Positions 47 through 27,226 of a stretch of DNA of 64,000 nucleotides are shown here, piece after piece. Made by a program: the position numbers and the translations under genes. The stretch is from a bacterium (GTDB lineage: Bacteria > Pseudomonadota > Alphaproteobacteria > Rs-D84 > CACZYB01). Under the pieces are notes generated by a model, which searched no databases, was not told where the DNA came from, and saw only the letters and a list, made by a program, of their open reading frames with translations. The stretch covers positions 87,165 through 151,164 of the forward strand of contig JAAVBO010000003.1 in the NCBI GenBank assembly GCA_014803575.1, given 5' to 3'. The first letter of the stretch is position 1, and every line of letters starts with the position of its first letter.

Positions 47-1147
47 TTGTTATCTGAAAAAATAGATGAAAAAAATCCTTCTGTGAATATTCGTGCTATT
101 GATTGTCTTCGCGGTTGTACTGGGTATGGAGCTTCTTTTTATGATGTAGATTATCGTATATATTATGATAATATTGCTAATAGTGATGAATGTATTATTT
201 ATAGAAGGAATAATGCAAAAATAAAAGTTAGGACTGGAGCTTTTGATTATAAAAAATTCTTGCCTGAAAATTCTAATGTGAAAACGGATGATGACTTTCT
301 TCTTTTAGTAAATAAATATAAAGAATATAACGAGGATAAAGATAAGGAATTGAAATCTTGTTATAAAATATATGAAGATAATTCTTTGACTTCTACAGAA
401 AAAGATGAAAAATATACTCAATGTGAAACAGATAACGAAAATACAAATAATAAGTTTGAAGGATTGTTAAAATCGTATATTTTTGAAGGAGGATTAGAAA
501 AGGATAAAAATAAGATACAATCAGTAATTGCAGATTGTAAACAAGCAGTTGAACAAGCATCAAAATATAAGGAAAATTATAATAAATGCAGTGAAAATAT
601 TAAAGGTAAAGTTGATAATTATAAGAAATCTATAGGATATAATAACTTAAAAGATTTAAGTTTAGGTTCATCATATAAAGTTGTAGATTTTGCAAAAGAT
701 GGTGTTATGATTAAAAGAGAATTTAATGCTCAAGAAATGCAGCTTTTTTCTTTTGTTGCAGCTATAGCAGGCAAAACTCCTTCTTCTGAGCAGTCATATT
801 TTGTTTACACAAAAGATACAAACTATGCAAATGGGGATTATTTCCGTAATAGAGGTTTGTATTATATAGAAGATGGGGTGTATAAATATACTACTGTAAC
901 CGGAGCAACTAATTCACTTCAGGCTTTAAAACCAACAAAATATAAAATAATAGATGTTAAAGAGAAAATAGCAGAAATAGAAAATAGTTGTGGTAAAAGT
1001 GATTATAAATATATAGATTTCTTAAAAGATGAAACAATTATACAGTGTGATATAACTGATTCTAACTATTGTTATAAGGATGGAAATAAGAAAAAGTGTT
1101 TTGAGGAAAAAGATGGAATAATAATACCTGATGATATTATGAGATGA
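47..1147 (+). CDS. Hypothetical Lys/Asp/Cys-rich protein, probably 5'-truncated by the window edge
   Basis: 366-aa ORF with a TTG start at 47. The same frame stays open back to nt 2, so the gene probably begins outside the window. No recognisable domain. Confidence 0.4.
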   Translation: MLSEKIDEKNPSVNIRAIDCLRGCTGYGASFYDVDYRIYYDNIANSDECIIYRRNNAKIKVRTGAFDYKKFLPENSNVKTDDDFLLLVNKYKEYNEDKDKELKSCYKIYEDNSLTSTEKDEKYTQCETDNENTNNKFEGLLKSYIFEGGLEKDKNKIQSVIADCKQAVEQASKYKENYNKCSENIKGKVDNYKKSIGYNNLKDLSLGSSYKVVDFAKDGVMIKREFNAQEMQLFSFVAAIAGKTPSSEQSYFVYTKDTNYANGDYFRNRGLYYIEDGVYKYTTVTGATNSLQALKPTKYKIIDVKEKIAEIENSCGKSDYKYIDFLKDETIIQCDITDSNYCYKDGNKKKCFEEKDGIIIPDDIMR

Positions 1148-1176
1148 TGAATATTAAATTTTTCCATATTAATCTA

Positions 1177-1210
1177 AAATCTCCTCATCATTCGGTGGGG
1201 AGGTTTTTAT
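1177..1210 (+). terminator. Rho-independent terminator after the first gene
   Basis: Hairpin ctcctcatcattcggtggggagg followed by a T-run. Confidence 0.5.
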
Positions 1211-1282
1211 TTATGGGTAAAACACATTATCTATAATTTATTTGTTAATGATTTTATGGTAACAAATGATAATAAAAAGTTT

Positions 1283-1305
1283 GTGTCCACGAGGGCACGA
1301 GGTTT
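1283..1305. repeat. 23-nt motif gtgtccacgagggcacgaggttt, left copy
   Basis: Matches 3764-3786 (gtgtccacgatggcacgaggttt) at 22 of 23 positions. Both copies are followed by a T-rich tract. Confidence 0.6.
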
Positions 1306-1453
1306 GTGTTTTTCTCAATAAAACTTCAAAATTTTCTTCAAAAACACCTAAAAACAGGCATTTTTCTTGCACTTTCTTGTGTTTTTTCGCTTACAAACCC
1401 AAAACAACACGACATAATTATATATATAAAACAAAAAACGAAAGGGTTTAAAA

Positions 1454-1705
1454 ATGTTACAAAAATTTCAAAACTGGCTTATCGCTAACAACTACAAACT
1501 TAATACTGCAAAAGATTATCAAGGTCGTATAACTCGCCTTTGTAAATATGAAAATATCAGCCTTGAAAATCTTATTGCAAACATTACTTCAATCTTACCT
1601 CAATACGAATTCGGTGAAAAATATTCTTATGGTAGTCGCTCTCATACAAGTGTTAAACAAGCTCTTCGTCACTTCAACAAATTTTTGAATCAGGAGGTAA
1701 GATAA
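1454..1705 (+). CDS. Small protein resembling a phage-integrase N-terminal SAM-like (core-binding) domain; possibly an integrase remnant
   Basis: 83 aa. The pattern FQNWLIANNYKLNTAKDYQGRITRL...KQALRHFNKFL fits the Y...L / ALR.FF.FL pattern of integrase N-domains, recalled from memory. Confidence 0.3.
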   Translation: MLQKFQNWLIANNYKLNTAKDYQGRITRLCKYENISLENLIANITSILPQYEFGEKYSYGSRSHTSVKQALRHFNKFLNQEVR

Positions 1706-1761
1706 TATTTCAAATCAAAGTAAATGTTATGTTGAAAAAGATAGAGGCTGTGAGGGTGTAA

Positions 1762-2076
1762 ATGGATATAAAGACTTTGAATGACGATTTTAGAAAAAGC
1801 CTTTTAGGAGGAAAAGTGATGCTGACCAGAGGTATTTCCAGTAAAGGTCAAAAGGCGATAAACGAGATTTTATATAGGGTAAAAACTTTTGATAATTTTA
1901 CCACGGATAACGACCCATATAATGAACACGATTACGGAAGTTTTTTATACGACGGTCAAAAGATTATGTGGAAGATAGACTATTACGATAAGGATTTAAG
2001 GTACTTTTCTGAAGATCCAGAAGATGTATCAAAAACTATTAGAGTTATGACTATTATGTTGGTGGAGGAATATTGA
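1762..2076 (+). CDS. DUF3768-like protein (plasmid/mobile-element associated)
   Basis: 104 aa with the motifs EHDYG and KIDYYD. I recall DUF3768 as carrying HDFG and IDYYD motifs; this is from memory. Confidence 0.4.
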   Translation: MDIKTLNDDFRKSLLGGKVMLTRGISSKGQKAINEILYRVKTFDNFTTDNDPYNEHDYGSFLYDGQKIMWKIDYYDKDLRYFSEDPEDVSKTIRVMTIMLVEEY

Positions 2077-2148
2077 AAAAATGTCTTGAAATTTGATTAT
2101 TTATTTACTAAATATATTTTATGTGAATAAACAAGAAAGGAGAATAAA

Positions 2149-2808
2149 ATGGCTGATAAATATGTAATACAAATAGCTAAAGAAGATGGAGCTCAAACTT
2201 GTGAAAAAGACGAAAATGGAGAGAATAAGAAAACAAGTGATGGTCGTTGTATAGTGGCATCAACGGATACAGAAAATCAAATAAATTTTGTATGTGATAA
2301 TGATAATATAAATTTAGAAGGTATTGATAAAAAAATAAAAAATAAATTACAAAATAATGAAAGCTTTACAAAAAAAAGAGAAGAGTATAATCAAGCAAAC
2401 TATAGAATAATTTTAAAAGATGTTGGAACACATAAAGAAAATGAATTATTTTTATTTTCCGCTAAATCAAATTGTATAGATTGTGAATCATTGTTTAGTA
2501 CTATTAAAAGTTATACTGGTGAAAAAAAATCCATAAATGAAGAAATAGAAAATCTTATAACGGAAATAAAAAATTTAAATGACAGTAATTTAATTTGTTG
2601 GGATGAATTTTGTCATATTGAAGAATTTTATGAAGATGATAATAAAAATAAGATCTTAAAAAAAATGAATAGATTATATATTACACCTAAAAATTTTGAT
2701 AAAGAAAAAGATATATTATGTTTTATAAATATAAATGATGAGGCCAAAAATGGAGAAGAGATATTTGACCCATTTAATTATGAAGAAATTCATGAATGTG
2801 AAAATTAA
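2149..2808 (+). CDS. Hypothetical acidic Cys-containing protein
   Basis: 219-aa ORF preceded by a strong RBS (aaaggagaataaaATG). No recognisable domain. Confidence 0.45.
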   Translation: MADKYVIQIAKEDGAQTCEKDENGENKKTSDGRCIVASTDTENQINFVCDNDNINLEGIDKKIKNKLQNNESFTKKREEYNQANYRIILKDVGTHKENELFLFSAKSNCIDCESLFSTIKSYTGEKKSINEEIENLITEIKNLNDSNLICWDEFCHIEEFYEDDNKNKILKKMNRLYITPKNFDKEKDILCFININDEAKNGEEIFDPFNYEEIHECEN

Positions 2809-2920
2809 ATTAAGTAATTATTAACTTATCCATAACATCACATAAACAAGCCAGAATTAAGCAAAACTAGTTCTGGCTTATGATTTACTACTAACATAAA
2901 TATGCTTATTCCTGCTTGAT

Positions 2921-3487
2921 TTAATTAAATATCTGATAGTCAAAAATCATATTGTCTGTACTGACAAGGCTCATACTTTCACTTTCAGACACTTCAAACT
3001 CTTTACTAATATATTCCGATATCCCACCTACATAATAAATAGGGGATACAACTATATTGTCTGGATACAGGCCGTTTAGTTTTACTTCTTCCCCATCTGT
3101 TTTTATATATACTTCAGCCTTTATTTTAGGTTGGATTTTTATGAATGCTTTTATCACATCGTCTACTGCGAACTTATCACTTTTTATTCCCAAAGCTACA
3201 TGAGCATGATAGTTTGTGTATGATTTACCTAGCTCTTTGACTACTACTAAATTAAAGTGTTTTTTGTATAGCTTAAACCAATGTGAGCCAAGCAATTCTT
3301 GAAACAGTTTATTAAATGTATTATGCAAACGACTGATAAGTTGAGTATCTGTAGTAGGAGTATTCACATACCAACGAAGGCTAGCAAATACTCCTTTGCT
3401 GTTGATAGTATTGGTAAGCCAATCCTCTATACTATTGATATTTTTGGTTTGTAAGATATTATGTCTTATGTGTTTTATCTGAGTCAT
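2921..3487 (-). CDS. Putative HUH-type rolling-circle replication initiator (Rep-like)
   Basis: 188 aa with an HUH-like motif (HYHAHVAL) and a downstream Y..K motif (EYISKE), consistent with HUH endonuclease motifs II and III. Assignment is tentative. Confidence 0.3.
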   Translation of the reverse strand: MTQIKHIRHNILQTKNINSIEDWLTNTINSKGVFASLRWYVNTPTTDTQLISRLHNTFNKLFQELLGSHWFKLYKKHFNLVVVKELGKSYTNYHAHVALGIKSDKFAVDDVIKAFIKIQPKIKAEVYIKTDGEEVKLNGLYPDNIVVSPIYYVGGISEYISKEFEVSESESMSLVSTDNMIFDYQIFN

Positions 3488-3755
3488 TATTTATATTAGT
3501 AATATATTGATTAGTATTATGTTATTAGTATATATTATTTTATATTAAAAGTATAAAAGAAATTTACTATAAGTTTATTTATATAGTATTTCAAAAGTCC
3601 GATTAGGTATCTACACCACCTCTTCTTTGACCAAAAAGGGCCTATAATATATAGAATTGAAATTTTTTTGAATTTTTACGGACTTTTTTAATAAAAATCG
3701 TAAGTTGTTGATTTTACAGAAAAGAAATTTTTAATTTTTTTATAGCGGTGCAAAT

Positions 3756-3787
3756 AAAACCTCGTGTCCACGATGGCACGAGGTTTT
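3756..3787. terminator. Bidirectional hairpin containing the right copy of the 23-nt motif
   Basis: aaaacctcgtg-tccacgatgg-cacgaggtttt: an 11-bp stem flanked by A and T runs. The motif copy lies at 3764-3786. Confidence 0.55.
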
Positions 3788-3975
3788 ATTTTCTAATTCC
3801 ACTAAAAATCACAAAAATAAAAAACAAATATTGTATATAAAGGGCATTTTTATACTATTTTTAGTGAAATTTATATAAAATTTTATATAATCTTGAAAAA
3901 TAATAAAATATCGCAATATACAAAATAAACACAAATAATATAAAAATCCTTTACAGGATATAATAAATAATTATA

Positions 3976-4533
3976 ATGAGAGATGTTGTTAAAATTATTT
4001 CAAGCCAGTATATAATTATGAAAAAAATATTTTTACTATTTTTGATTATAATTTCCACTCAAGTTTTTTCAAAAAGAAAAACTGTGGATAGGATTTATAC
4101 AAAGGAAGAGGAAGAGATAATCAAAAATTATCTTGGAACATTTTATTTTAAAGGTCTTAAACCGACAAAACATTTGGTAATAGTGCCAAGTGATCAATAT
4201 GGTAAAATAGCAGTGTTTGATTATGTAACCCCAAAAAGACATTTATGTACTCTGGAATTTGATGATTTTGATTTATATGAAGGTATGAATGCCTCAACTT
4301 GTATGTTTTTGGATTGTCTTGAACAAGGTGTAGAGGAAACTAGACCTGCACTTACAATATATATCATATATTGTAAAACAGAAGATGGAATTAAAGAAAT
4401 ACTTTTTGAAGAAAAGGAATATTTTGCAAGATATAAAGAATGTATTCGAAATAACTGTGATATTGACAGTTTATATCATCGAATCCCTCCACACAATTAT
4501 TATTATTACAGATTAGAGGAAAAGGGGGAATAG
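3976..4533 (+). CDS. Hypothetical secreted protein
   Basis: Signal peptide MKKIFLLFLIIISTQVFS, so the likely true start is ~4018. No recognisable domain. Confidence 0.4.
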   Translation: MRDVVKIISSQYIIMKKIFLLFLIIISTQVFSKRKTVDRIYTKEEEEIIKNYLGTFYFKGLKPTKHLVIVPSDQYGKIAVFDYVTPKRHLCTLEFDDFDLYEGMNASTCMFLDCLEQGVEETRPALTIYIIYCKTEDGIKEILFEEKEYFARYKECIRNNCDIDSLYHRIPPHNYYYYRLEEKGE

Positions 4534-4545
4534 TCCCCTTTTTTA
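4521..4545. terminator. Bidirectional terminator between convergent genes
   Basis: gggg-aatagt-cccc hairpin followed by a T-run. Confidence 0.5.
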
Positions 4546-5502
4546 TTTTGCAGTTTTAAGCATATTAACCCGCCATTTATTTCTGTCTTTACCTATTTGA
4601 TCTGATGTGCATTCTTCTGCTGCTTTTTTCCAATCTCTTGCTCTTATTGCCTTAAAAAATTCGGGCCAACCATCGCTTCCTGTTTCTTTTTTATCTTTAT
4701 CATTCCCGTCGTGAAATCTTTTACCCATATTATATTCCATATCCAATAGAACTTTTTTTACATTATATGGATAAGAGAGAAAATCTTTAAATTTTGCTTT
4801 AACTTGATCTAAATCTTTATATAGATGGTCTTTTACTTTTTCATTTATTTCTTCCTCTCTTATTATTAAATAATCATCACGTTTATATTTCTCTGCTTTA
4901 TAATTATATGGTTTATTCTTTGGACCATTTTTTCCCAGCTTGTTACGTGTTGTTATTATTTTATCATATTCTTCCATCTTTCTTTCATCTGTTACCTCTA
5001 TTTCGGTTTTCGGATCAACTAAATTTAATTTTACCATATCTTCTTTTTTTGCTATCATATTTCCTGCACCTATTGTTACATTTCCCTTTGTATCTGCATA
5101 CCCAAATGTTTTAATGTCTTCAAGTTTTTTTATTTCTTCTTCCATTTCTGGTAATAAATGGGTATATAGTTTCTTTTCAATTTCTCTTTCCCATTCTTTT
5201 ACTTCCATTGATTCCCTACTAAACATAGGGTGTTTTGGTGGATGAAGTTCTCTTTCACCGTTTGGTTTTTCATATATTAAATCTCCCCATATAGTTTTAT
5301 CAGCATCTTTACCAGACCAAGGTCGTTGAGTTAAATAGTCAGGTGCAAGACCTGAAACATCCTTTACTATACATCGACAATTAGGATGTGGTTTTTCCGG
5401 TACATCTTCAATGTTTGTATATTCAGTTAAATGTAAAGCTTTGCATGTATCACAAGATTTTCCTCCGTTGTCCGCAATCCAGATATAATTTACTTTTTTC
5501 AT
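4543..5502 (-). CDS. Fusion of a MuF-like Cys-motif module to a GH24 (T4-type) lysozyme; no signal peptide
   Basis: N-terminus SCDTCKALHL...HPNCRC resembles the conserved C-terminal motif of phage Mu F / SPP1 gp7 proteins. C-terminal half is lysozyme-like: E-x7-YADTKGNVTIGAG ... RDWKKAAEE...NKWRVNML. Start moved to MKKVNYIW at 5502, which has an aaggaaa RBS. Confidence 0.55.
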   Translation of the reverse strand: MKKVNYIWIADNGGKSCDTCKALHLTEYTNIEDVPEKPHPNCRCIVKDVSGLAPDYLTQRPWSGKDADKTIWGDLIYEKPNGERELHPPKHPMFSRESMEVKEWEREIEKKLYTHLLPEMEEEIKKLEDIKTFGYADTKGNVTIGAGNMIAKKEDMVKLNLVDPKTEIEVTDERKMEEYDKIITTRNKLGKNGPKNKPYNYKAEKYKRDDYLIIREEEINEKVKDHLYKDLDQVKAKFKDFLSYPYNVKKVLLDMEYNMGKRFHDGNDKDKKETGSDGWPEFFKAIRARDWKKAAEECTSDQIGKDRNKWRVNMLKTAK

Positions 5503-5534
5503 TTTATTTCCTTTTAAGTTATTAAATAAAAAAA

Positions 5535-5558
5535 GGACTAGTGTAGATACACTAGTCC
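5535..5558. promoter_or_regulatory. Perfect 24-bp palindrome (candidate operator) in a divergent intergenic region
   Basis: GGACTAGTGTA-GA-TACACTAGTCC lies between the divergent genes 4543..5502(-) and 5861..7309(+). Confidence 0.4.
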
Positions 5559-5860
5559 CATTGGTTAAAAAACACCATACCATAATTTAAAGAAGGATTT
5601 ATTAAAAGATAAGGACCTTGTACTATATATTGAAAAATAAGGTCAAAAATAAGGACCGTTTTTTTCTATCGGTCTATAAATCCTATTATATATTAAAATA
5701 GGAAATAATACAAATAAAAAAATATGTTATCATCTATTTGATAATACAGAAATATTTTAATTTGATTGTCTTTTTTATATAAATTTTCCATTTACAACAA
5801 AAACAGCAAATAAAAAACGGTCGTTTAAATTGAACAATTAATGAAATAAAAGGAGATAAA

Positions 5861-7309
5861 ATGAATAGAAAAGATATTCTTAATAATTTAGACCATGCGT
5901 TGGGTGAGTATAAATCTGCACAGTTGTTTGTAGATAATGAAGATAATGCTCAATATATAGTAAATATTGTTAAAAAAATTGATGCTCTTTATTACGGATT
6001 ATTTGATGGAATTGTGGCACCGAGTTATGCTTATGTTTCTAAAGATAAGGTAATGAAAGATAGACATGCCTATGATGCTGATTATGAAAGAGCTAAAAAA
6101 TATGCTGATGTTTTTAGGGGATTTGTTAATGATGTTGAGGTTAAAAAAACTTTTTCTTTGATAGAATCTTTGAAAAAAGAATTACAAAATACAAAAGACG
6201 GTATAAAAGGTGGTATAAATGGTATAACGGAAGGTTTTATTGATGCTTTTGTGAAATTGAAATATGCTTTGGGAGATTTGTTTGTTGATGTAGTTGGTGA
6301 GGGTGTAGAAATTGTAATGAATATAATGGAGCTTGTTGATACATTAGAAAATAAAATCTCTGAGGTTTTATATAATGCCTATAAAATGCCTTTGCACGAA
6401 TCTAAACTACCAGAAATTGAGACAAATAGTCATAATTATTATTATTATCCAGTTGATTCTTCATTAAGAAAAATAAGAATTGATTTTAGGGATAAACTTA
6501 ACGATTTTTATGCTCATAAATTAAACCATGCAACAAAGCCTGCTGACTTTTATTATGGAATTAAGGGGTGTCATTTTCATTTTATTAAACAACATAAAAT
6601 GGATCACAATGAGTGGTTTCATGCTTTTCAGATGGAGAGGGATGGATATTACGTACCTGATACTAATGAGTTCTATAATGAAGAAAATTTTTATTCAAGA
6701 CTCATTGAAAAAATTTTTGCCCTTATACCATATAAAGAAGAGCATATGAAATCAAAATTACCATTGAAAATTATGGAAAATATTTTTGAATATGCAGAAA
6801 TCTTGAAAAAAAACAGATTTAAAACAAATTATGATGGAAAGCAAGACTATGAAGGTCAAAAAAAAGTATATATTTGTTTATTGGCAAGTATTGTTGGAAC
6901 TTTCTTAACGCCTGCTATACTAAGATCACCTAGAGCAAATATGGAGTTTAGGACATCTTTGAGTGTTGAAGAATTGACGGATAATTTTGAAAAAAATCTT
7001 TCAAACCTTAAACAAATTGCTTCAAAACTATCTGAAAAAGAGAAATTGACTCCGGTTGAAAAGGATATTTGCAGTAAGTTAAGTGTGTTGGATAACAACT
7101 TATTTACTTATGACTGGGCTACTGAGATAAATAAAGATTATGATAAGGCAAAATTTAAGGAAGCAAAAAGACTTGCAAAAAATAATGACAGGTATAAAGA
7201 TGCCGAGTATATTCTTGCAGTAAGGAAGTTGCAAGCAAAGTATTTGGGTATGGAATACGATGAAAAGCTTGCTGATGGAATTGCAAAAAGAAAGTTATTA
7301 GAAAAGTAG
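5861..7309 (+). CDS. Hypothetical protein
   Basis: 482-aa ORF with RBS ggagataaaATG. No signal peptide and no recognisable domain. Confidence 0.45.
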   Translation: MNRKDILNNLDHALGEYKSAQLFVDNEDNAQYIVNIVKKIDALYYGLFDGIVAPSYAYVSKDKVMKDRHAYDADYERAKKYADVFRGFVNDVEVKKTFSLIESLKKELQNTKDGIKGGINGITEGFIDAFVKLKYALGDLFVDVVGEGVEIVMNIMELVDTLENKISEVLYNAYKMPLHESKLPEIETNSHNYYYYPVDSSLRKIRIDFRDKLNDFYAHKLNHATKPADFYYGIKGCHFHFIKQHKMDHNEWFHAFQMERDGYYVPDTNEFYNEENFYSRLIEKIFALIPYKEEHMKSKLPLKIMENIFEYAEILKKNRFKTNYDGKQDYEGQKKVYICLLASIVGTFLTPAILRSPRANMEFRTSLSVEELTDNFEKNLSNLKQIASKLSEKEKLTPVEKDICSKLSVLDNNLFTYDWATEINKDYDKAKFKEAKRLAKNNDRYKDAEYILAVRKLQAKYLGMEYDEKLADGIAKRKLLEK

Positions 7310-7381
7310 TGATTGATTTTTGTTGGCGTAAGGGATTGCCAGTTTTTAGACAATCCTTTTTTTGTATGATAAGAAATGATA

Positions 7382-8452
7382 TTAGTCTTCAGATTGAGGA
7401 TTTTGTTTTGGTAAACATCCACAGCAACTATCAAATACTTTAATTTGTTCTAGGAATTTCAATATCCTTTTTAAATCTTTGGAAGATAGTATATCTTTCT
7501 TATTATTGCTTAAATTAGATGCTAAATATTCAATAAGATTTTTAATAGCTATATCTTTATTATTGTAATTTTTTATTTGTTCAATAAATCCATCAATTCT
7601 AGCAAAATATAAATTTATAGTTCTTCTGTTTTTTTGTTTATATGCTTCATTCAAAAGAATGAATACTGGAGAAATACAAAAAACAAAAAAAGGTAACTTA
7701 TAAAAAAAACAAATTTTTAAAATATTTTTTAAAGAATTAATATCTTTATTTATAAATTGTGTAATATTATCGACTTTTGAAAGATATTGTATCAAATTAT
7801 AATTCATATAAATGAAAAATCCAATACCAATAAGTATCCATAAAATAGATATAAAAAACAATATTCCAAAAGCAGAATATGTGTTAGGTTTTAAAAGTGA
7901 AAATCTCTGTTCATTATTTATTATATTAGATTTATTATAATTGTTAGTATAGTTTTTAGCTGTTTCTGAATACATAAGTTTGAGTTGATTATATTTTTCT
8001 TCTGATTTTCTTCTAAGTTCTTCAATATTATCTAAATTTGTCAATTTATTATTAACTATGTTTTCCAATCTGTCTAATAAATTTTTTTGATTAAATTCTT
8101 TTAAATCTATCAATATCTGTTTCAATTTATCACTTTCTGTAAAAATTTTATCATAATAATTCTGACTCATATGAGCTATCTTAAAATTTCTAGATAATTC
8201 AGAAATTTTTTTTAATATTTTATCAATATTTAATAAATACTTTCTCATTGACATATGATCTTTTTCTTTATAAAGTTCAAGTGCACTGTAAGTTTTTTTT
8301 ATTCTTTCAATTTCAGAAGAAGTTTCTATTAAAATATTTTCTAATTCTTTCAATCCTTTTTTATTATCTTTAGATATCTTCTTTTTTAAATAATCTCTAA
8401 TATTATGTAAAAGGTCTTTTAACATAGTCTGCATAGTTTCAAAGGTATTCAT
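7382..8452 (-). CDS. Hypothetical coiled-coil membrane protein
   Basis: 356 aa with two hydrophobic segments (AFGILFFISILWILIGIGFFIY, FFVFCISPVFILL). N-terminal half looks coiled-coil. C-terminus CCGCLPKQ. Confidence 0.4.
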   Translation of the reverse strand: MNTFETMQTMLKDLLHNIRDYLKKKISKDNKKGLKELENILIETSSEIERIKKTYSALELYKEKDHMSMRKYLLNIDKILKKISELSRNFKIAHMSQNYYDKIFTESDKLKQILIDLKEFNQKNLLDRLENIVNNKLTNLDNIEELRRKSEEKYNQLKLMYSETAKNYTNNYNKSNIINNEQRFSLLKPNTYSAFGILFFISILWILIGIGFFIYMNYNLIQYLSKVDNITQFINKDINSLKNILKICFFYKLPFFVFCISPVFILLNEAYKQKNRRTINLYFARIDGFIEQIKNYNNKDIAIKNLIEYLASNLSNNKKDILSSKDLKRILKFLEQIKVFDSCCGCLPKQNPQSED

Positions 8453-8597
8453 TTTTATATTCCTTTTTTATTCTTATTTCACATATAGAATATAATTCCA
8501 TATCGAAATAAAAAGTCAAAATCAGAATATTGAGTATTTTTATTTAAGTATTTATATTTACAGATGAAATTAAGGAATTTTAGCGGGCAAAAAAAAC

Positions 8598-8611
8598 GTT
8601 CGTTATTTTTG
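8598..8611. repeat. Left arm of a 14-bp perfect inverted repeat (gttcgttatttttg)
   Basis: The partner is at 8751-8764 (caaaaataacgaac). The arms bracket a 139-bp segment containing the poly-C tract and a promoter. Confidence 0.5.
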
Positions 8612-8698
8612 CACGGTGCGATTCGTAAAGTTTTTAGCTATATTTTAATGTAAAAAATATCCTTAAATAGAATTTTATTTAGTAAAATCAATCATTTA

Positions 8699-8707
8699 CC
8701 CCCCCCC
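8699..8707. repeat. Homopolymeric C9 tract (candidate slipped-strand phase-variation site)
   Basis: Nine consecutive C in a roughly 28% GC genome. It directly abuts a TTGACT -35 hexamer upstream of the glycosyltransferase operon. Confidence 0.6.
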
Positions 8708-8736
8708 TTGACTTTTATTCCAAATTGGTATATTTT
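8708..8736 (+). promoter_or_regulatory. Sigma70-like promoter (TTGACT-N17-TATTTT) facing the glycan operon
   Basis: TTGACT at 8708-8713, a 17-nt spacer, then TATTTT at 8731-8736. Hexamers were read by eye in AT-rich DNA. Confidence 0.35.
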
Positions 8737-8750
8737 TTTATTGTTCATTA

Positions 8751-8764
8751 CAAAAATAACGAAC
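8751..8764. repeat. Right arm of the 14-bp inverted repeat
   Basis: Reverse complement of 8598-8611. Confidence 0.5.
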
Positions 8765-9000
8765 ATTAAAATTGAACAGTATTACTAATATGGGGAATAT
8801 ATTATCTGCAACAACAAAACATTATCAATTATATATTCCTCTCTTTAAATTAAAAGGTAAAAAATGGCAACAGAAAAGAGTAATAACGAATTAAAAGAAT
8901 TTTACATAGAAAACAATGTGTCTGATGAGGAATTAGCTGACTATTTATATTCACTACAAGATAATAACAAAGTTGTATCAATAAGATTGGAGAATAAGTA

Positions 9001-9969
9001 ATGGTAAGTGTTAGTGTTATAATGCCCGTATATAATACTAAAGAAAAATACTTTCGAAAAGCTATAGAAAGTATCTTAAAACAAACATTTAAAGATTTTG
9101 AGTTAATTATTGTTGATGATTGTTCCGATAAATATATAGAGGAAATAGTTTCTTCTTATAATGATATTCGTATTAAATATTACAGATTAAATAAAAATTT
9201 AGGAGCGGCAAGTGCAAGAAATTTTGCAATACAAAAATCAAATGGTAAATATTTGGCATTTATGGATTCAGATGATATTTCTTTACCAAACAGATTGCTT
9301 ATACAATATAATTTTTTAGAACAAAATAAAGAAATCGGTTGTATTGGAACTTGTTATAAAATTAAAGGAAAAAATATCAAAATTTTCGGGAAAAATATTT
9401 TTAAGCATGATGAAATTGTAAAATATCTTCTTTTTAAATGTTGTGCATTTTGCCAATCAACAGTGATGCTTTGTAAAGATATATTAATTAACAATAATAT
9501 ACTTTACAGATCAGAATATGTTCCATCAGAAGATTATGCTCTTTGGTTAGATTTAATTGGAAAAACCAGATTTGAAATTCTTAAAAATACATTAGTTATA
9601 TATAGAAATCATAAAGAAAGTATTTCTCATAAAATGAAAAGTATTCAAATAGAAACATCTTTAAAAGCTCAAATTGAAGCAATAAGAAAAAATTGTAACA
9701 TAGAAATATCTATATTAAATGAAATTTTTTCTATATGTAAAATAAAGGATCTTGAAATAAAAGATATTAAAAAATTTGAACAAATAATACTAAATACAGA
9801 TATAACAAATGATTCATTAAAACAATTCCTTAGAAATAAAACAAGAAGAATTTTCTATCATACACATGGCTTTAAAAAACAATATTATCTTTGTCATTCT
9901 AAATTAAATAAACTTTTTAAATTTCCTTTGTATTGGAGGATATTTATTTTTATAACAAGGATGTTTTAA
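9001..9969 (+). CDS. Family 2 glycosyltransferase
   Basis: VSVIMPVYNTKEKYFRKAIESILKQTFKDFELIIVDDCSDK and a DSDD motif; classic GT2 N-terminus. Confidence 0.8.
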   Translation: MVSVSVIMPVYNTKEKYFRKAIESILKQTFKDFELIIVDDCSDKYIEEIVSSYNDIRIKYYRLNKNLGAASARNFAIQKSNGKYLAFMDSDDISLPNRLLIQYNFLEQNKEIGCIGTCYKIKGKNIKIFGKNIFKHDEIVKYLLFKCCAFCQSTVMLCKDILINNNILYRSEYVPSEDYALWLDLIGKTRFEILKNTLVIYRNHKESISHKMKSIQIETSLKAQIEAIRKNCNIEISILNEIFSICKIKDLEIKDIKKFEQIILNTDITNDSLKQFLRNKTRRIFYHTHGFKKQYYLCHSKLNKLFKFPLYWRIFIFITRMF

Positions 9970-10124
9970 ATGATTTTAAATTTAGATTACACAAAGGAAA
10001 AAATATCAAATTTAAAGGATAAAAACACAATTTTATCATTAGTTAAAATTTTTGCTCAAAATAAAAATATTAATGAGGAATATAAAAATTTTTTAAATGA
10101 AATAATAACTTACATGGAGACAAA

Positions 10125-11084
10125 ATGAAGACAATTATTGTAACAGGTGGAACAGGATTTTTAGGTTCTAATTTATGTATTCGATTAATAAATGAGGGTA
10201 ATAAAGTTATTTGTATTGATAATAATTATACCGGACGTTTAGAAAATATAAAAGAAATAGAAACTAATGCTAATTTTAGATTTATTAAACACGATATTTG
10301 TGAACCATTAGAAATTACTGAGCATATAGACCAAATTTATAATCTTGCTTGTCCAGCATCTCCGCCTGCTTATCAAGGAAAACATTCTATTGATACAACG
10401 AAAACTTGTGTGTTTGGTGCGATTAATATGCTTGAACTTGCAAAAAAGCATAATGCGACAATACTTCAAACTTCAACATCTGAAATTTATGGTGAGCCTC
10501 TTGTCCATCCACAAGTGGAAACATACAGAGGTAATGTTAATCCTATTGGTATTAGAGCTTGTTATGACGAAGGAAAACGTTGTGCAGAATCTTTATTCTT
10601 TGATTATCACAGACATGAAGGCGTTGATATAAAGTTGGTTCGCATTTTCAATACATATGGTCCTAAAATGGATCCAAATGATGGTCGTGTTATTTCAAAC
10701 TTTATATGTCAAGCATTATCAGGACAAGATATTACTATTTATGGTGATGGACATCAAACTAGATCCTTTTGTTATGTTGATGATTTGATTGAAGTAATAA
10801 TTCGTATGATGAATTCATCATTTGGATTTATTGGTCCTGTAAATATTGGAAATCCAAATGAATTTACAATAAAGGAATTGGCCGAAATGGTCGTTGATAA
10901 AATAGGAAATGGTTCAAAAATTATTTATAAAGATTTACCTTCTGATGATCCAACACAAAGAAGACCGGATATTACTTTGGTACAAACTAAACTTAATTGG
11001 ACACCGATAGTTCAATTAAATGAGGGATTAGATAAGACTATTAAATATTTTAAGACTCAAATAAATCTATTTAAGAAAGGTTAA
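10125..11084 (+). CDS. UDP-glucuronate decarboxylase (UDP-xylose synthase-type NAD-dependent epimerase/dehydratase)
   Basis: GTGFLGSNL Rossmann motif, a YDEGKR catalytic Y-x3-K, and overall UXS/ArnA-decarboxylase-like sequence. Confidence 0.8.
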
Positions 11085-11087
11085 AAA

Positions 11088-12386
11088 ATGAAAGTAGGAA
11101 TAATAGGTACAGGATATGTAGGACTTCCAACCGGTGTCGGTTTGGCAGAACTTGGAAACGAAGTAATTTGTATAGATAGAGAACAATCAAAAATTGATGC
11201 TTTAAAAGCTGGTAAAATTACACTTTATGAAGATGGTTTGGAAGAGCTTTTTCATAAGAATATGAAAGAAGGACGTATAAAGTTTACAACTTCTATGAAA
11301 GAAGGAATTGAGCAATCTGACTTGGTTATTATTGCAGTTGGAACACCTCCTCATCCCGTAACAAAGGAAGCTGATATGAAGTATATTCATGCTGCGGCTA
11401 CAGAACTTGCTGAACATCTTCAGGGATATACTGTAATTGCAACTAAATCTACTGTTCCTGTTGGTACAGGTGATGATATAGAAGCATTAATAAGAAAGAA
11501 AAATCCAAATGCAGATTTTGATGTTATCTCTTTACCGGAATTTTTACGTGAAGGATTTGCAGTTCATGACTTTTTTAATCCCGATAGGATTGTAGTTGGT
11601 GCAAATTCACAGAAGTCTTGTAATGTCATAAAAGAACTTTATAAACCATTTGAAGAAAAAACAAATATATTATTTGTAAAACGTCGTTCAAGTGAAGTTA
11701 TAAAATATGCTTCCAATGCATTTTTAGCAATAAAAATTCATTATATTAATGAAATGGCTAATTTTTGTGAAAAAACTGGTGCTGATATTTATGAAGTTGC
11801 TAAAGGTATGGGGTTGGATAGCAGAATTGGTCCAAAGTTTTTAAATCCTGGTCCTGGATATGGTGGTTCTTGTTTTCCAAAGGATACTATGGCTATGTCC
11901 TATATGGCACGACAAAATGATGTTGATATGACTTTAATTAATGCTGCTATTAATGGAAATACAAAACGTAAAAAAGAAATGGCGGATAGAGTCTTAAATG
12001 CAATTAAAGGTATTGAAAATCCGAAAATTGCTGTTTTAGGGTTGGCATTCAAAGATGGAACTGATGATTGTCGTGAAAGTCCGGCAATAGAAATCATAGA
12101 AAATCTATTGGAAAATAATGCTAATATTATAGCATATGATCCAAAGGCAATGGAAACAGCAAAACTTTTACTTGGTGATAAAATCAAGTATGCAAATGAT
12201 ATGTATGAATGTTTAAAAGATGCTGATGTCCTTGCAATTTTAACAGAATGGGAAGATTTTAAAAATTTAGATTTGAACAAAGTCGCAAAGCTTATGCGTA
12301 ATAAAAATATTGTTGATTGTAGGAATCTGATTGATGCTAAAAATGTACTAACTAATGGATTCAACTATAAAGGTATTGGTAGGTAA
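11088..12386 (+). CDS. ugd: UDP-glucose 6-dehydrogenase
   Basis: GTGYVGLPTG NAD-binding motif and a GGSCFPKD catalytic-Cys motif. 432 aa. Confidence 0.9.
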   Translation: MKVGIIGTGYVGLPTGVGLAELGNEVICIDREQSKIDALKAGKITLYEDGLEELFHKNMKEGRIKFTTSMKEGIEQSDLVIIAVGTPPHPVTKEADMKYIHAAATELAEHLQGYTVIATKSTVPVGTGDDIEALIRKKNPNADFDVISLPEFLREGFAVHDFFNPDRIVVGANSQKSCNVIKELYKPFEEKTNILFVKRRSSEVIKYASNAFLAIKIHYINEMANFCEKTGADIYEVAKGMGLDSRIGPKFLNPGPGYGGSCFPKDTMAMSYMARQNDVDMTLINAAINGNTKRKKEMADRVLNAIKGIENPKIAVLGLAFKDGTDDCRESPAIEIIENLLENNANIIAYDPKAMETAKLLLGDKIKYANDMYECLKDADVLAILTEWEDFKNLDLNKVAKLMRNKNIVDCRNLIDAKNVLTNGFNYKGIGR

Positions 12387-12389
12387 AAT

Positions 12390-14498
12390 ATGGTAAATAA
12401 AACAATAAAAAATAAATTAGAAGAAAAAACATCACCTAAAATTTCAATTATTGTTCCTGTGTATAATGTAGAAAAATATCTACAAAGATGTTTAGATTCT
12501 TTGGTTAATCAGACATTAAAGGATATTGAAATAATATGTATTAATGATGGCTCCAAAGATAATTCATATAAAATTCTGAAGGACTATGCTAAAAGAGATA
12601 AAAGAATAAAAGTATTTACACAAGATAATTCAGGACCGGCCAAAGCCAGAAATGTAGGTTTAAAAAACGCAACAGGTGAATTTATAATGTTTTGTGATTC
12701 TGATGATGAATATACTGAAGATATGTGTAAAGATATGCTATCTTGTATAAAAAAACAGAATGTTGATCTTGTTATGTGTAATACTACGTTATTAAACAGA
12801 GAAGAGAAGGAGATAACAAGCAAATATTATTTCCCTTTTTCTCCTGGGAAATATACTGTTGATGATAGAATTAAAATTGGAATTAATGTATATTTATGGA
12901 ATAAAATTTTTAAAAAATCAATAATAGATTCTTATAATATTAAATTTCCAGAAGGACATAAATCTGATGATAATCTTTTTATTTACGAATATGTAATGGT
13001 TTCTGATAATATATATATTTTAGATGAAAAATTATATTATCATTATGATATAGAGAATTCTATTATGGATTTATATAATAGTAAGAAAATAAAGTTATGT
13101 GATGTATTAGATAAATTAGATATATTGATTAATTTATATAATTTTCTTCAAAAATATAATATATTTGTTCAAAATAAAAAAAGTTTTTCTTATATATTTT
13201 ATACCGAGTTATTTTATGCTTGGATACATGTTCCAGAAGAATTTAAAAAAGAATTTTTGACTAGAAGTTCTGAAGTAGTGCAAAATATCAAAATAAATAA
13301 TTTTTTATATAATCCTAGTGACTTGTATAAATTAAAAGTTATTGAAGTTATAAACAATAACAATTATTTAGCAGCAGAAAAATTATTAGATTTTTTATTA
13401 AGTACTCAAAATAAAGCTAGAAATAAATATTTATTTGCAGAAACAGTAAAACCGATTTTTAAAGAATATTGTATACCTATAGTTTTTAATTGTGATAATA
13501 ATTTTGTAATGTATTTATCAATTGCATTACAATCTATAATTGATAATTCTTCTGTTGAACATAATTATGATATTTGTATTTTAAATGAAGATATTTCTGA
13601 AAGAAATCAAGAAAAATTACATAGAATTTTTTATAAGCATAAAAATTTTTCTTTAAGATTTTTTAATATGAAAAATATTTCTTTACAATATAATTTATCA
13701 AAATATAAAACTATTAATCATGTAAAAACAGCTGCATATTATCGTTTGTTTGTTCCTGAAATATTTAAATATTATAAAAAAGTAGTCTATTTGGACAGTG
13801 ATATTATTGTTAATTGTGATATTTATAAATTAATAGAGAAAAATATAGAAAATTATTCTTGTGCTGCAGTACGTGATTTTTATATTTCTAATATTAAAGA
13901 AGGTAATGAATTTGTATTTCCTGGTATTATTGAGTATAGTAAAAATATACTTAATATTTCTAATTTTAATAAATATTTTAATTCTGGTGTAATGATTTTT
14001 AATATAAATAAAATGAATAAATTTAATTATTTTGATAAATTTATAAAAATTGCAGAAATTAATAATAAATATTTTAATGATCAAAATGTATTAAATTCAG
14101 TATTACAAGATGATGTTTATTTATTAGATTCTAGTTATAATATGCAACTTAATTCTGGAGCAATTCTTTTCATTTATTGTAATTTAATTCCTTTAAATAA
14201 AATAAAAATTTTGCATTTTTGTAGCAAATACAAACCGTGGAATAAATCATCTCTTGATCAATATGATACCATTTGGTGGGAATATGCAAGAAAAACTCCA
14301 TTCTATGAGGAAATATTAATGAATTTAATGAATGCAAAAAGTACACAAAATGTGAAAACTCAGCGTCCTAACAACAATAACTATCCTCAATTTCAATATC
14401 ATCATAAGTTAGAAAGAATATTTTCTGTAAAAGGGTTATATACACCAAACAAAAAATATAAAGTTCTTACAATTTTTGGTATAAAAATAAAATTTTAG
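12390..14498 (+). CDS. Bifunctional glycosyltransferase: N-terminal GT2 domain plus C-terminal GT8 (LgtC/RfaJ-like) domain
   Basis: N-terminus ISIIVPVYNVEKYLQRCLDSL...CDSDD. C-terminus YYRLFVPEIF...VVYLDSDIIV...NSGVMIFN, typical of GT8. Confidence 0.7.
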   Translation: MVNKTIKNKLEEKTSPKISIIVPVYNVEKYLQRCLDSLVNQTLKDIEIICINDGSKDNSYKILKDYAKRDKRIKVFTQDNSGPAKARNVGLKNATGEFIMFCDSDDEYTEDMCKDMLSCIKKQNVDLVMCNTTLLNREEKEITSKYYFPFSPGKYTVDDRIKIGINVYLWNKIFKKSIIDSYNIKFPEGHKSDDNLFIYEYVMVSDNIYILDEKLYYHYDIENSIMDLYNSKKIKLCDVLDKLDILINLYNFLQKYNIFVQNKKSFSYIFYTELFYAWIHVPEEFKKEFLTRSSEVVQNIKINNFLYNPSDLYKLKVIEVINNNNYLAAEKLLDFLLSTQNKARNKYLFAETVKPIFKEYCIPIVFNCDNNFVMYLSIALQSIIDNSSVEHNYDICILNEDISERNQEKLHRIFYKHKNFSLRFFNMKNISLQYNLSKYKTINHVKTAAYYRLFVPEIFKYYKKVVYLDSDIIVNCDIYKLIEKNIENYSCAAVRDFYISNIKEGNEFVFPGIIEYSKNILNISNFNKYFNSGVMIFNINKMNKFNYFDKFIKIAEINNKYFNDQNVLNSVLQDDVYLLDSSYNMQLNSGAILFIYCNLIPLNKIKILHFCSKYKPWNKSSLDQYDTIWWEYARKTPFYEEILMNLMNAKSTQNVKTQRPNNNNYPQFQYHHKLERIFSVKGLYTPNKKYKVLTIFGIKIKF

Positions 14499-14807
14499 GA
14501 AAGATATTAGGTTTATAGAATATATTCTATCGGTAAGAAATGAAAATCAATATAAGATACTAAGAATATTAGGGTTTAAAATTAAATTTAAAAGAAAAAA
14601 TAAATAATTATCAATTACTTATATGCTGAAAATCAAAGATTATATTTCTTTCGGTAAGATATTATTTTGGATTTTTAATTCAATTATTTCTTGATAATTA
14701 TAGAATTATACTTAAACTAATATTTAGTAAACAAGAAAAATATAATTGAGAAGAAAATTTTTTACAGTTTATTTTAAAACTGCAAAACATTTTTTGAAAG
14801 GTAGATT

Positions 14808-15899
14808 ATGTCTATATCTTATGTATTACAAACTCAACATAAGACTTTTAATGCAAATTTTCATACAGGGAAAATAGTATATGGTGAAAATAAAGAATTT
14901 AACTGGATTTATGATTGTGGAAAGAGTAATTTGGTTCGGCAATATTTAAAGGAAGTTGATAAAGTTGATTTGATTTTTATCTCTCATTTTGATAGAGATC
15001 ATATTAATGGACTTCCTATACTTTTAGCTGATCCTAAGGCAGAAAATGCACAAATAGTTGTGCCATATTTGACAGATGAAGATATTGCTATTTTATTCAG
15101 TGGAAATTTTTATTCATCAATAAAACAAAAGGAACGACAAGATGCTTTTTATAAATTTATGAATGAATTGTTAGAAATACAATCTCAGGAAAAGTTTGAG
15201 AAAGAGTTTGTTTATGATTTATCAAAAGATGATGAGAAGAGTGATAAAAATGATAAAGAGTGTAACGGACAAAAAATCATTCCTATTGTTGGAAATAATT
15301 GTGGTTTTGCAATGGAAGTAAAGTTTCCAAATGATGAAATATGGGCTTTTAAAACTCATGTTTTTGAAGATAGTAAATTAAGAAAATCAATGCAGAATTT
15401 GTTAAAAGGTTCAACACTGAAAAAAGAATTAAGGGATAATTTTAATGAGTTTAAGGAAAAATTCAAAAAAGAGTATAAGAAAGAGATACAAAAAATAAAG
15501 AAAGAATTGGGAGGAGAATCAAGAAATGTTATGACAATGTCCATGATTTCAATGCCTGAAAAAATAATATATTGTCATATCGATTGTGCTCCTCTTGCTT
15601 GGTTGCATACAGGAGATGCGTATCTATCTGACATTAATATTTGGAAACAATTTTTAGCTTTTTTGATTCCTTACAGATGGAGGATAAATGTTTGTGTGTT
15701 GCCTCATCACGCTTCAGTAAAAAGTGAAAATAAAAAATTGTATAGAATGCTAGATGAAATGTGTAATTATATTGTTACTCCGTCCTCAAGAGTTTCATTT
15801 TCTTATCCTTCGGTTAGAAACCTGTTTTTTGTTAATTGGTTAAGTTTTGAAACTATTTATAAACCGGATTATTTTATATATTCTCATTTTATATTTTAG
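14808..15899 (+). CDS. MBL-fold metallo-hydrolase with a ComEC-like HxDxDH motif
   Basis: LIFISHFDRDHINGLPIL, compared with the ComEC beta-lactamase-domain motif HADQDH. Confidence 0.45.
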   Translation: MSISYVLQTQHKTFNANFHTGKIVYGENKEFNWIYDCGKSNLVRQYLKEVDKVDLIFISHFDRDHINGLPILLADPKAENAQIVVPYLTDEDIAILFSGNFYSSIKQKERQDAFYKFMNELLEIQSQEKFEKEFVYDLSKDDEKSDKNDKECNGQKIIPIVGNNCGFAMEVKFPNDEIWAFKTHVFEDSKLRKSMQNLLKGSTLKKELRDNFNEFKEKFKKEYKKEIQKIKKELGGESRNVMTMSMISMPEKIIYCHIDCAPLAWLHTGDAYLSDINIWKQFLAFLIPYRWRINVCVLPHHASVKSENKKLYRMLDEMCNYIVTPSSRVSFSYPSVRNLFFVNWLSFETIYKPDYFIYSHFIF

Positions 15900-16192
15900 A
15901 AATTGTTGATTAAATATATATCTTGATTCCGGTAATTTTTATTGTTATTATTATATTAATTATGGAAAAGGGATTAGGAATATGAAAAAAATAAATGAGC
16001 TTTTGAAAATAAAACCTTCAATAGAAGAGTTTGAAAATTGTGTGAAAATTGGTAAGAATTTTTGGAAAAATTCTATGAAGGAACAATGTAAGTTGGTTGA
16101 AAAACAAAAGGAAGAGCATAGAAAATTAAAACCATCTCCTGAATTGTATAAGATAGAATTTACGTTATAAAATTGATTTAAAAAAAGGTAAA

Positions 16193-16642
16193 CTAAATAC
16201 GATTTAATTTATGATTTTTAAGAAAATTTTTGTTTGATAACATTAAGTTTTCAGGAAGATTATTTATATCAAACCATTTCCATTCGGCACATTTATTTCG
16301 TTCCATAACTTTTGGTTCTCCCTTATATTTTTTACAAAAAAGATGTAGTGTTATGTAATGTTTTTCTGTTTCTTTGAAAAAGTCATTAGTAACGCCTTCC
16401 AGCCACACATCGTTTGCGTTAATTGTAAGGTTTGTTTCTTCTTTTGCTTCACGAATTGCAGCTTCTTCGTTTGTTTCACCGAATTCCATATGACCACCAG
16501 GTGGACACCATGTATTAAATCCGTGTGGACTTTTCCTTAATCCCAATAATACTTGATTATGTTCATTGAAAATATATAATCCGACACCAACGCGAATACT
16601 TTTTTCCATAATTTTTCCCTTCTTATTCCTTCCTTTCCCCAC
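16193..16642 (-). CDS. NUDIX hydrolase
   Basis: Nudix box GGHMEFGETNEEAAIREAKEETNL. The true start is probably MEKSIRV at ~16609. Confidence 0.75.
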   Translation of the reverse strand: MGKGRNKKGKIMEKSIRVGVGLYIFNEHNQVLLGLRKSPHGFNTWCPPGGHMEFGETNEEAAIREAKEETNLTINANDVWLEGVTNDFFKETEKHYITLHLFCKKYKGEPKVMERNKCAEWKWFDINNLPENLMLSNKNFLKNHKLNRI

Positions 16643-24135: not shown

Positions 24136-25503
24136 TCAGAATCGTTGGTTAAGTGTCATTTCTATGGCACTTTTTTCATATTCGTGTTGCCATACGTTGG
24201 AATTTTTATCTGTGTAGGTATAAGTAATGGTTGGCGAGAATCCCCAAAAACTTAATTTTCTGTTTGATAGAGATAATGAGTATTTTCTTGTAATATCTTT
24301 TTCTTTTATTTCTTCAAACTTTAAGTTTTTTACAAACCATCTTTCCTTATCATAATTTGTGTATAATATGGAAGGTTCAACATACATTGTGAATCCGTAT
24401 GGAAGTTCTATGCCAAAACCTATTGCATAGCTGTTTCTTGTATTGGAATAAATTCGTTCCTTTGTATTTTCAATTTCATATCCTGTTCTGAAAATTAAAT
24501 ATTTTGAGGCATCGAACATATATGATAATCTGGCATTAATTCCGCGAGTATCTCCATCCAAAATTTCGCCATAATCATCATATCTTGTTGGCATATAAGA
24601 AAGAGTTAAACCTCCGGATAGACTTCTTGTAAAATCATAACCGGTATTTATTTTTAATCCGACTGCGTAGCTGTAAGGTTGGTGGGCAAGCCATCTTCTG
24701 TATGCGGAAGGTCCAGCAAAAATTTCTCCATTTTTCCAAACATATTTTGGACCGAAATTATAACTTAAATAAAGATCGTCATATTCTTTTTTATTGTATG
24801 TATTTGAATAAAGCATAGCTTCATTTCTTAATCGCCATTTATCATTAATTAAAAATTCATAACTTCCGCCGAGGGAAACATTAAAACCTATGGCTTTTTC
24901 TTTATCTGATAATTGATTACAAAGTACGCCCCACATAGTCATAATACATTGTTCGCCACCGGTTGCGTTGTTGATATTATCATCCGGTGCGGCGCCGATA
25001 TTAAACCAGATATTCCAATTTTTGTTTTGTCGTGCGACATAAATATATTTTGCGATTTCTTGTTTTACAGGTGGAGGAAGAGTTTCGTCTGTTGCTGCTA
25101 ATCTTAAATGATAATCAGCTCTGTACCATGATTTTTGTAGCATATAAAGTTGTGCGAGTTTGAATCTTATTGATGATATATTTGGTTGGTAATCAAGGAT
25201 GAATCTTAAAATTTCAATTGCATCATCTATACGATTTTCAAGGGTTGCGATTTCAGAGAGAAGATATAGACGTTCTATTTCCAATTCCTTTACATTGAAA
25301 GGAGATTTTAGAAGTAGTGTTTTTGCACTGTCATATTCTTTATTTTTAATAAATTCTTTTGCTAAATTTATTATTTGTATGGGATTTAATTTGATAATTT
25401 TTTCAGAAGTTTCTGTATCGGGAATAGGAGTAATTTCCTCTGCCTTAATATCAAAAGATATTAAGGAAAAAATTACTCCTATGACTATAATAAATAACTT
25501 CAT
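24136..25503 (-). CDS. Outer-membrane TPR plus beta-barrel protein resembling Slam (surface lipoprotein assembly modulator, DUF560)
   Basis: Signal peptide, then an N-terminal TPR-like region, then a C-terminal region of alternating aromatic beta-strand patterns ending in a terminal Phe (LNQRF). The NWNIWFNIGAAPDDNINNA segment matches the DUF560 barrel start as I recall it. Confidence 0.55.
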   Translation of the reverse strand: MKLFIIVIGVIFSLISFDIKAEEITPIPDTETSEKIIKLNPIQIINLAKEFIKNKEYDSAKTLLLKSPFNVKELEIERLYLLSEIATLENRIDDAIEILRFILDYQPNISSIRFKLAQLYMLQKSWYRADYHLRLAATDETLPPPVKQEIAKYIYVARQNKNWNIWFNIGAAPDDNINNATGGEQCIMTMWGVLCNQLSDKEKAIGFNVSLGGSYEFLINDKWRLRNEAMLYSNTYNKKEYDDLYLSYNFGPKYVWKNGEIFAGPSAYRRWLAHQPYSYAVGLKINTGYDFTRSLSGGLTLSYMPTRYDDYGEILDGDTRGINARLSYMFDASKYLIFRTGYEIENTKERIYSNTRNSYAIGFGIELPYGFTMYVEPSILYTNYDKERWFVKNLKFEEIKEKDITRKYSLSLSNRKLSFWGFSPTITYTYTDKNSNVWQHEYEKSAIEMTLNQRF

Positions 25504-25625
25504 TTAATTATAATTAACGTTTTTTTGATACATATAATTTATATCTGAAATTTATGTATGTCAATAAAGTCTCAACATTTATTTCTCAATAAAATTAATC
25601 AAAAAAACGTCTCCCTTTTTTTTTG
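25504..25625 (-). promoter_or_regulatory. Intergenic module, copy 1 (inverted relative to copies 2 and 3), with TTGACA-N17-TAAATT oriented toward the Slam gene
   Basis: On the minus strand the -35 is at 25564-25559 and the -10 at 25541-25536; the Slam start codon is at 25503. The reverse complement of this region aligns with 27064-27184. Arm sequences are degenerate (aacgttttttt / aaaaaaacgtc). Confidence 0.5.
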
Positions 25626-27035: not shown

Positions 27036-27063
27036 ATTAATTTCCTTTCAGTTTTTTATATTA

Positions 27064-27184
27064 GTCAAAAAAAAGGTACGTTTAAATTGACCGATTTTAT
27101 TAAAAAATAAACATTAGGATTTTATTGACATACACGAAATTAGGATATAAATTATATATGTCAAAAAAAAACGTACCTTTTTTT
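27064..27184 (+). promoter_or_regulatory. Intergenic module, copy 2: 16-bp inverted-repeat arms flanking a TTGACA-N17-TAAATT promoter that currently points antisense
   Basis: The arms are aaaaaaaaggtacgttt (27067-27083) and aaaaaaaaacgtaccttttttt (27163-27184). The -35 is at 27125-27130 and the -10 at 27148-27153, both on the plus strand. Confidence 0.5.
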
Positions 27185-27226
27185 ATCACTTTATTACTGA
27201 ATGAAACTACTCCTTATTTGTTAAAG

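Follow-up and report, generated by a model that had tools for sequence, protein, structure and literature searches.

A probable Mpi-type invertible promoter upstream of a strain-variable glycan operon in an uncultured low-GC gut bacterium

We report a short, repeat-bracketed segment upstream of a glycan operon that is, with a probability of roughly 85%, an invertible promoter (inverton) of the kind switched by Mpi-like serine recombinases. The segment lies in a 64-kb stretch of DNA with a GC content of 29.9% (hereafter, the window), whose sequence is identical to that of the ENA metagenome contig ERZ27267564 k119_64096; the locus is also carried by the Logan run SRR11425449. NCBI labels the host itself a "bacterium" and assigns its more distant relatives, MAGs from animal guts, to the Alphaproteobacteria. 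In the mechanism that we propose, a small serine invertase, probably encoded at 40223-40834, would cut both recombination sites at their cores, and the cut segment of 161 bp with its promoter would rotate. The assembled orientation would be ON, with the promoter directed into a 45-aa ORF and the GT2-UXS-Ugd-GT2/GT8 operon; in the inverted, OFF orientation, the promoter would face a divergent 356-aa gene, leaving the glycan operon without a promoter. Judging from the recombination sites, the window probably holds at least six such switches, the others lying ahead of Slam-associated lipoprotein genes and genes without known function.

The sequence GTTCGTTATTTTTG occupies 8598-8611, and its perfect reverse complement stands at 8751-8764, with 139 bp between the two arms. 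The original prediction of 14-bp perfect inverted repeats around a 139-bp segment is therefore exact in its coordinates, base for base, and the repeat lengthens to 17 nt with 16 of 17 positions matching (8595-8611 and 8751-8767). The window contains seven perfect inverted repeats of 14 bp or more, counted within 600 bp, compared to a mean of 0.84 in block shuffles. The 14-bp arms constitute the core and inner halves of two ~26-bp sites of the serine-invertase type, which are built from an A-tract half-site, S-G, a 2-bp core, C-S, and a T-tract half-site. The left site (8587-8612; GCAAAAAAAACG-TT-CGTTATTTTTGC, with its TT core at 8599-8600) contains the arm at 8598-8611 and is a near-palindrome, matching at 11 of 12 positions around the core. 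The right site (8750-8775; ACAAAAATAACG-AA-CATTAAAATTGA, with its AA core at 8762-8763) contains the arm at 8751-8764. Inversion by a serine recombinase requires complementary cores, and the left TT complements the right AA. We place the putative cleavage positions at the 2-bp cores, which would delimit an invertible segment of 161 bp (8601-8761) whose interior between the perfect arms spans 8612-8750.

These sites belong to a larger family. We trained a site matrix on four site pairs of the window, those of this element (element F) and of elements B, C, and E. The left site of element F, itself a training site, was the top match at 34.5 bits, compared to a shuffle maximum of 18; the right site, also used in training, scored 22.7 bits. 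The matrix additionally recovered an untrained pair in the window (element G) and the sites of loci L002, L006, and L160-L166, and it returned no match of at least 13 bits over ~0.9 Mb of unrelated loci. Sites homologous to the left site are present in L006 and L160. Six intergenic site pairs of one architecture thus occur in the window, five besides this element and mostly ahead of surface-protein genes. The window segments are short (96-176 bp), and the paired cores are complementary in five of the six window pairs (TT/AA, TA/TA, AA/TT, AT/AT, and AC/GT) as well as in L006 (TT/AA).

Element G (5643-5833) comprises sites at 5643-5668 (core AC, 19.6 bits) and 5808-5833 (core GT, 13.1 bits). 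It separates the divergent genes 4543-5583 (-) and 5861-7309 (+), neither of which has a family match, and no clear promoter was recognized in its interior. The promoters of elements B (27065-27187, cores TA/TA) and C (28768-28889, cores AA/TT) point away from lipoprotein genes at 25626-27035 (-) and 27227-28738 (-), respectively, and element E (31638-31839, cores AT/AT) is found upstream of a third lipoprotein gene at 30048-31607 (-). Element A (25504-25624) has an interior paralogous to those of B and C in the opposite orientation, with 73/95 positions identical to B when reverse-complemented versus 56/96 in the forward direction, and it faces the Slam gene at 24136-25503 (-). Its sites score near zero and its cores are mismatched (AA versus GA), so that it is probably decayed and locked, and it may be a former switch locked ON. 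Element A is absent from L162, L163, L167, and L168, where the Slam gene starts 4 nt after the lipoprotein gene.

Slam proteins are surface lipoprotein assembly modifiers. Adjoining the Slam gene of the window (PF04575) are four paralogous lipoprotein genes (25626-31607, -) whose products share the N-terminus MKNNLKISLIALSTLLTACGGG. Three of the four are preceded by invertons (B, C, and E), with the promoters now directed away from them (OFF). The cluster looks to encode a family of Slam-dependent surface lipoproteins under phase variation.

A candidate recombinase is encoded elsewhere in the window. A tblastn search with the resolvase of L003, which is found beside a GT2 homologue, retrieved one window gene, at 40223-40834 (+), with 46% identity. 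Its product is a stand-alone small serine recombinase (Pfam Resolvase, E 6e-34), and among NCBIfam models it best matches NF009949, "master DNA invertase Mpi family", over the full length (E 4.5e-73), with a score of 245.3 bits that falls below the curated equivalog cut-off of 272. The closest solved structures are those of the Gin invertase, and the YxRVST and DRLGR catalytic motifs are intact. The gene is flanked by a metallo-beta-lactamase-fold gene and a tRNA-Lys gene. It is the only resolvase homologue in the window and lies 31 kb from the element, on which its product probably acts in trans as an invertase.

More distant GT2 loci show a closer association. In six of them (L003, L004, L007, L009, L076, and L077), an Mpi-like gene adjoins the GT2 gene, and the short contig L005 has a 21-codon fragment at the position of this gene. 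Upstream of GT2, all seven loci contain a segment of 97-130 bp bracketed by repeats, which form a second site class centered on ACCACCGT. In uncultured Akkermansia MAGs (L011-L025), perfect inverted repeats of 13-24 nt, ~142-163 bp apart, are found at many paralogous GT2-led loci, about 90-280 bp upstream of the GT2 homologues. The arms of these repeats share ATCTCTTT..., pointing to a large family of invertons there.

Both orientations of the element itself are seen between species only, from a comparison of the window with L006, a related species' MAG in which GT2 shares 75% identity with that of the window. The region upstream of the L006 gene carries the same promoter module reversed (...AAAAGTCAA-G9-TAAATCATTGATT...). 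Its flanks match the window in the forward direction on both sides, whereas the interior matches solely as the reverse complement. Flipping L006 3751-3901 in silico renders the whole intergenic region collinear with the window, with identities of 90/126 in the left flank and 21/27 in each of the left and right sites. The promoter module is then identical at 54/63 positions, including a perfect 33-nt match, ATTTA-C9-TTGACTTTTATTC.

Within the species, inversion is visible at sister element E. In L151, which derives from another sample, positions 1420-1615 correspond to window positions 31837-31640 in reverse at 94% identity, and the flanks are collinear (94% identical on the left and 98.9% on the right); L161 and L152 hold element E in the window's orientation. 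This inverted interior also ruled out an interpretation of the palindromes at 31.6-31.8 kb as regulator operators. The flips of L006 and of element E, together with the site family and the Mpi-family gene, support the promoter inversion that had been proposed from the window alone.

A homologous switch, F', is carried by eight other assemblies of the same species, with the same 14-nt arms and the promoter TTGACT-N17-TATATT, and is oriented ON in all eight. The Logan contig L167 (ERR5005177_47) starts exactly at the first base of the F' arm CAAAAATAACGAAC, as expected for an assembly-graph branch point if both orientations coexist in a sample. This start is suggestive only, and the sample may hold F' in both orientations. 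The end of L002 inside the segment was rejected as a sign of mixed orientation, since this contig continues 22 nt beyond the repeat. F' heads a different glycan operon (44-aa ORF, NTP-transferase, epimerases, DUF4422, and GT8) in the same variable island. This strain-variable glycan island extends over ~7310-16200, from a 482-aa gene to a DUF3977 gene, as judged against L170/L171 (~520-8240). In other strains, the island operon is different and runs in the opposite direction, the switch adjoins DUF3977, and the 356-aa gene is missing.

On the divergent side of the window's element, the 356-aa ORF (7382-8452, -) encodes a coiled-coil region and two hydrophobic stretches and has no family match. 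The flipped promoter of L006 faces an unrelated gene that occupies the position of this ORF. The two divergent products accordingly differ, the one being 356 aa with coiled-coil and membrane-spanning character and the other 569 aa; the latter is presumably DUF262-like, and family scans of it matched nothing. The ~130 bp between the left site and the divergent gene (8453-8586 in the window and 3609-3736 in L006) are 71% identical between the species. Because this stretch is conserved despite the unrelated divergent genes, the flipped promoter may have a conserved leader on that side too.

The promoter that would be switched is a sigma-70-type sequence, TTGACT-N17-TATTTT (8708-8736, +), with TTGACT at 8708-8713 and TATTTT at 8731-8736, and it faces the glycan operon in the ON orientation. 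A promoter scan gave 8 sigma-70-like sites in 8300-9100 compared to 6.2 expected, and the motif alone is not significant in this AT-rich DNA. TTGACTTTT and the position of the -10 element are invariant in three homologous elements (window, L160, and L006), and the consensus across homologous elements is TTGACT-N17-TATWTT, with L006 and F' reading TATATT. We infer that the sequence is an active promoter, with transcription expected to start near 8743.

The glycan operon (9001-14498, +) consists of the genes that had been predicted downstream of the promoter, all recognized by Pfam: GT2 (9001-9969), a UXS-like SDR (10125-11084), Ugd (11088-12386), and a GT2-GT8 fusion (12390-14498). A 52-aa ORF (9970-10128, +) lies between the GT2 and UXS-like genes, and the first gene of the operon is the 45-aa ORF (8864-9001, +) that precedes GT2 and is also called as a gene in L001. 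ORFs of 44-45 aa of this type (MATEKSNNELKEFYIENNVSDEEL...) open two otherwise different glycan operons, in the window and in L160 (2547-2681, -), and have no family match. Exact-protein look-ups with the GT2, UXS, 45-aa, and 356-aa ORFs returned only the window's own contig, with other copies grouped as "similar places". The UXS homologues P0244 and P0248 were discarded as module carriers, as they come from unrelated organisms with 38-40% GC and lack the module.

Just 5' of the first ribosome-binding site, a leader hairpin is followed by a U-rich run (8792-8841, +; stems 8792-8802 and 8831-8841). The hairpin is kept in three homologous loci with differing stem sequences (window, L006 3928-3984, and L160 ~2700-2760), and its predicted folding energy is -11.4 kcal/mol (z -1.7) in the window and -18.1 kcal/mol (z -2.8) in L006. 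No RNA family was found at the locus by Rfam, with permissive settings on 8300-9100 or with gathering thresholds on the whole window, and a terminator scan found none. The hairpin may be an attenuator or a processing signal.

The most distinctive feature of the promoter is a C9 homopolymer (8699-8707, +) at about -36 to -44. As originally claimed, it directly abuts the -35 element, with the coordinates confirmed, and it is exceptional: it is the sole run of C or G longer than 6 in the 64 kb, compared to ~0.0009 C9 runs expected from base composition. The tract of L006 also comprises 9 residues, read as G9 on the other strand, and TCTTTTCATA occupies the corresponding position in F'. The tract was found only with the GT2-UXS-Ugd operon type (window and L006). 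The variation in tract length between strains that slippage would predict was not seen, both of these two loci having 9, and a scan of JGI metagenomes for the promoter module with 7-21 C's gave 0 matches.

We considered three other explanations for these features. The segment could be a small non-autonomous mobile element, or "promoter cassette", inserted in either orientation without programmed flipping. Several paralogous copies in intergenic DNA and an orientation that varies between loci would fit such an element, but homologous loci have the element at one and the same position, with collinear flanks and outer half-sites and a reversal confined to the DNA between the cores. Moreover, no target-site duplications were seen, the paired cores are complementary, and a dedicated serine invertase family accompanies such loci; we therefore regard insertion as very improbable. 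It is at least as hard to sustain the view that the 26-bp near-palindromes are operators at which a dimeric transcription factor loops or represses the promoter without DNA rearrangement. The 11/12 palindrome of the left site around its 2-bp center and the recurrence of similar palindromes upstream of other genes are what operators would predict, yet homologous loci differ by a physical inversion of the interior, whose breakpoints fall inside the sites, and no adjacent regulator gene was found at the locus. We consider this the least probable of the explanations.

The C9 tract raises the separate question of a slipped-strand contingency tract, acting alone or together with inversion. Gain or loss of C's would alter the placement of the upstream A/T-rich DNA with respect to the -35 element, thereby grading or switching RNA polymerase binding and expression. 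The tract has the length needed for slippage (about 8 or more G/C); it has no counterpart in the window, is very improbable by chance in 30% GC DNA, and belongs to some alleles of the promoter module while others lack it, as is common for contingency tracts. Its position against the -35 element has a precedent in H. pylori sabA, where a homopolymer tract adjoining the -35 element acts as a rheostat (PMC4081817), and by analogy the C9 tract may tune promoter strength. Against this stands the constant length of 9 in both carriers, although 9/63 bases of the module differ (two observations only). The tract also lies outside any ORF and upstream of the -35 element, outside the -35/-10 spacer, so that a change in length would leave the spacing unaltered, and it appears dispensable because the same promoter has TCTTTTCATA at this position in eight assemblies. 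The slipped-strand reading is thus weakly motivated and not supported by the data available to test it, and we hold it to be doubtful. Somewhat less likely still is a two-layer switch, in which a hypermutable C tract within an Mpi-type inverton would grade promoter strength, and in which switch, tract, leader hairpin, and small ORF would pass between species as one module together with the glycan operon.

Returning to inversion as the preferred explanation, the closest known counterpart is Mpi of Bacteroides fragilis, a serine invertase that acts globally, inverting promoters at capsular polysaccharide loci and other surface loci. Both systems involve a small stand-alone serine recombinase (here a candidate, with Mpi as the best family match but a score below the equivalog cut-off), several short (about 100-180 bp), dispersed segments that bear promoters (putative ones here) and have a common repeat core, and glycan operons and surface proteins as targets. 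The Mpi repeat core, which we take to be ARACGTWCGT, would be matched by AAACGTTCGT of the left site. In contrast to B. fragilis, the host is an uncultured low-GC (30%) Gram-negative outside Bacteroidota, and its promoter is of the TTGACA/TATAAT type rather than the Bacteroides -33/-7 type. No genes of the UpxY/UpxZ type were seen here; instead, the conserved 45-aa ORF and the leader hairpin head the operon, and the switch contains a C9 tract.

The Hin/Gin/Cin/Pin systems with their hix and gix sites offer a second comparison. The catalytic domain is most similar to the solved Gin structures, and the sites, inverted relative to each other, likewise read as a 2-bp core between two ~12-bp half-sites; in L006 and in all but one of the window pairs, the paired cores are complementary. 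The hix half-site, presumably TTATCAAAAACC, resembles TCAAAAATAACC of the present sites. Unlike in Hin and Gin, the recombinase gene is neither inside nor beside the segment, although it is adjacent in the more distant relatives. The segments are also far shorter than the ~1-kb Hin and 3-kb Gin segments, and there are many target loci rather than one. As in the sabA rheostat, a homopolymer lies directly upstream of the -35 element with A/T-rich DNA beyond it, but here the tract is of C rather than T or A, is located inside an invertible segment, and shows no length variation between the two loci.

Invertons have been reported across many phyla, including Proteobacteria (PMC11602134). Like those catalogued in the PhaseFinder and DeepInverton surveys, the element described here is an intergenic promoter flanked by inverted repeats upstream of surface-structure genes; unlike them, it is supported by comparative orientation and a shared site family rather than by read mapping. 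As an inversion it is well supported, although the 31-kb distance of the candidate recombinase gene, its score below the Mpi cut-off, the non-significance of the promoter motif by itself, and the uniform ON orientation of F' count against it. We propose it as an additional member of the known Mpi-type inverton class.

Overall, the regulon design of Bacteroides, with one recombinase for many switches at surface loci, would be extended by these findings to a gut lineage of uncultured, low-GC, Gram-negative bacteria, where the targets appear to be glycan operons that vary among strains and a surface lipoprotein family associated with Slam. Searches with the site family could locate all the switches of these genomes, and metagenomic reads could be scored for ON and OFF states in the same way. 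Whether one promoter can combine inversion with slipped-strand tuning could be tested simply on the C9 tract; if the two-layer switch were true, one 161-bp module would yield ON, OFF, and intermediate glycan expression.
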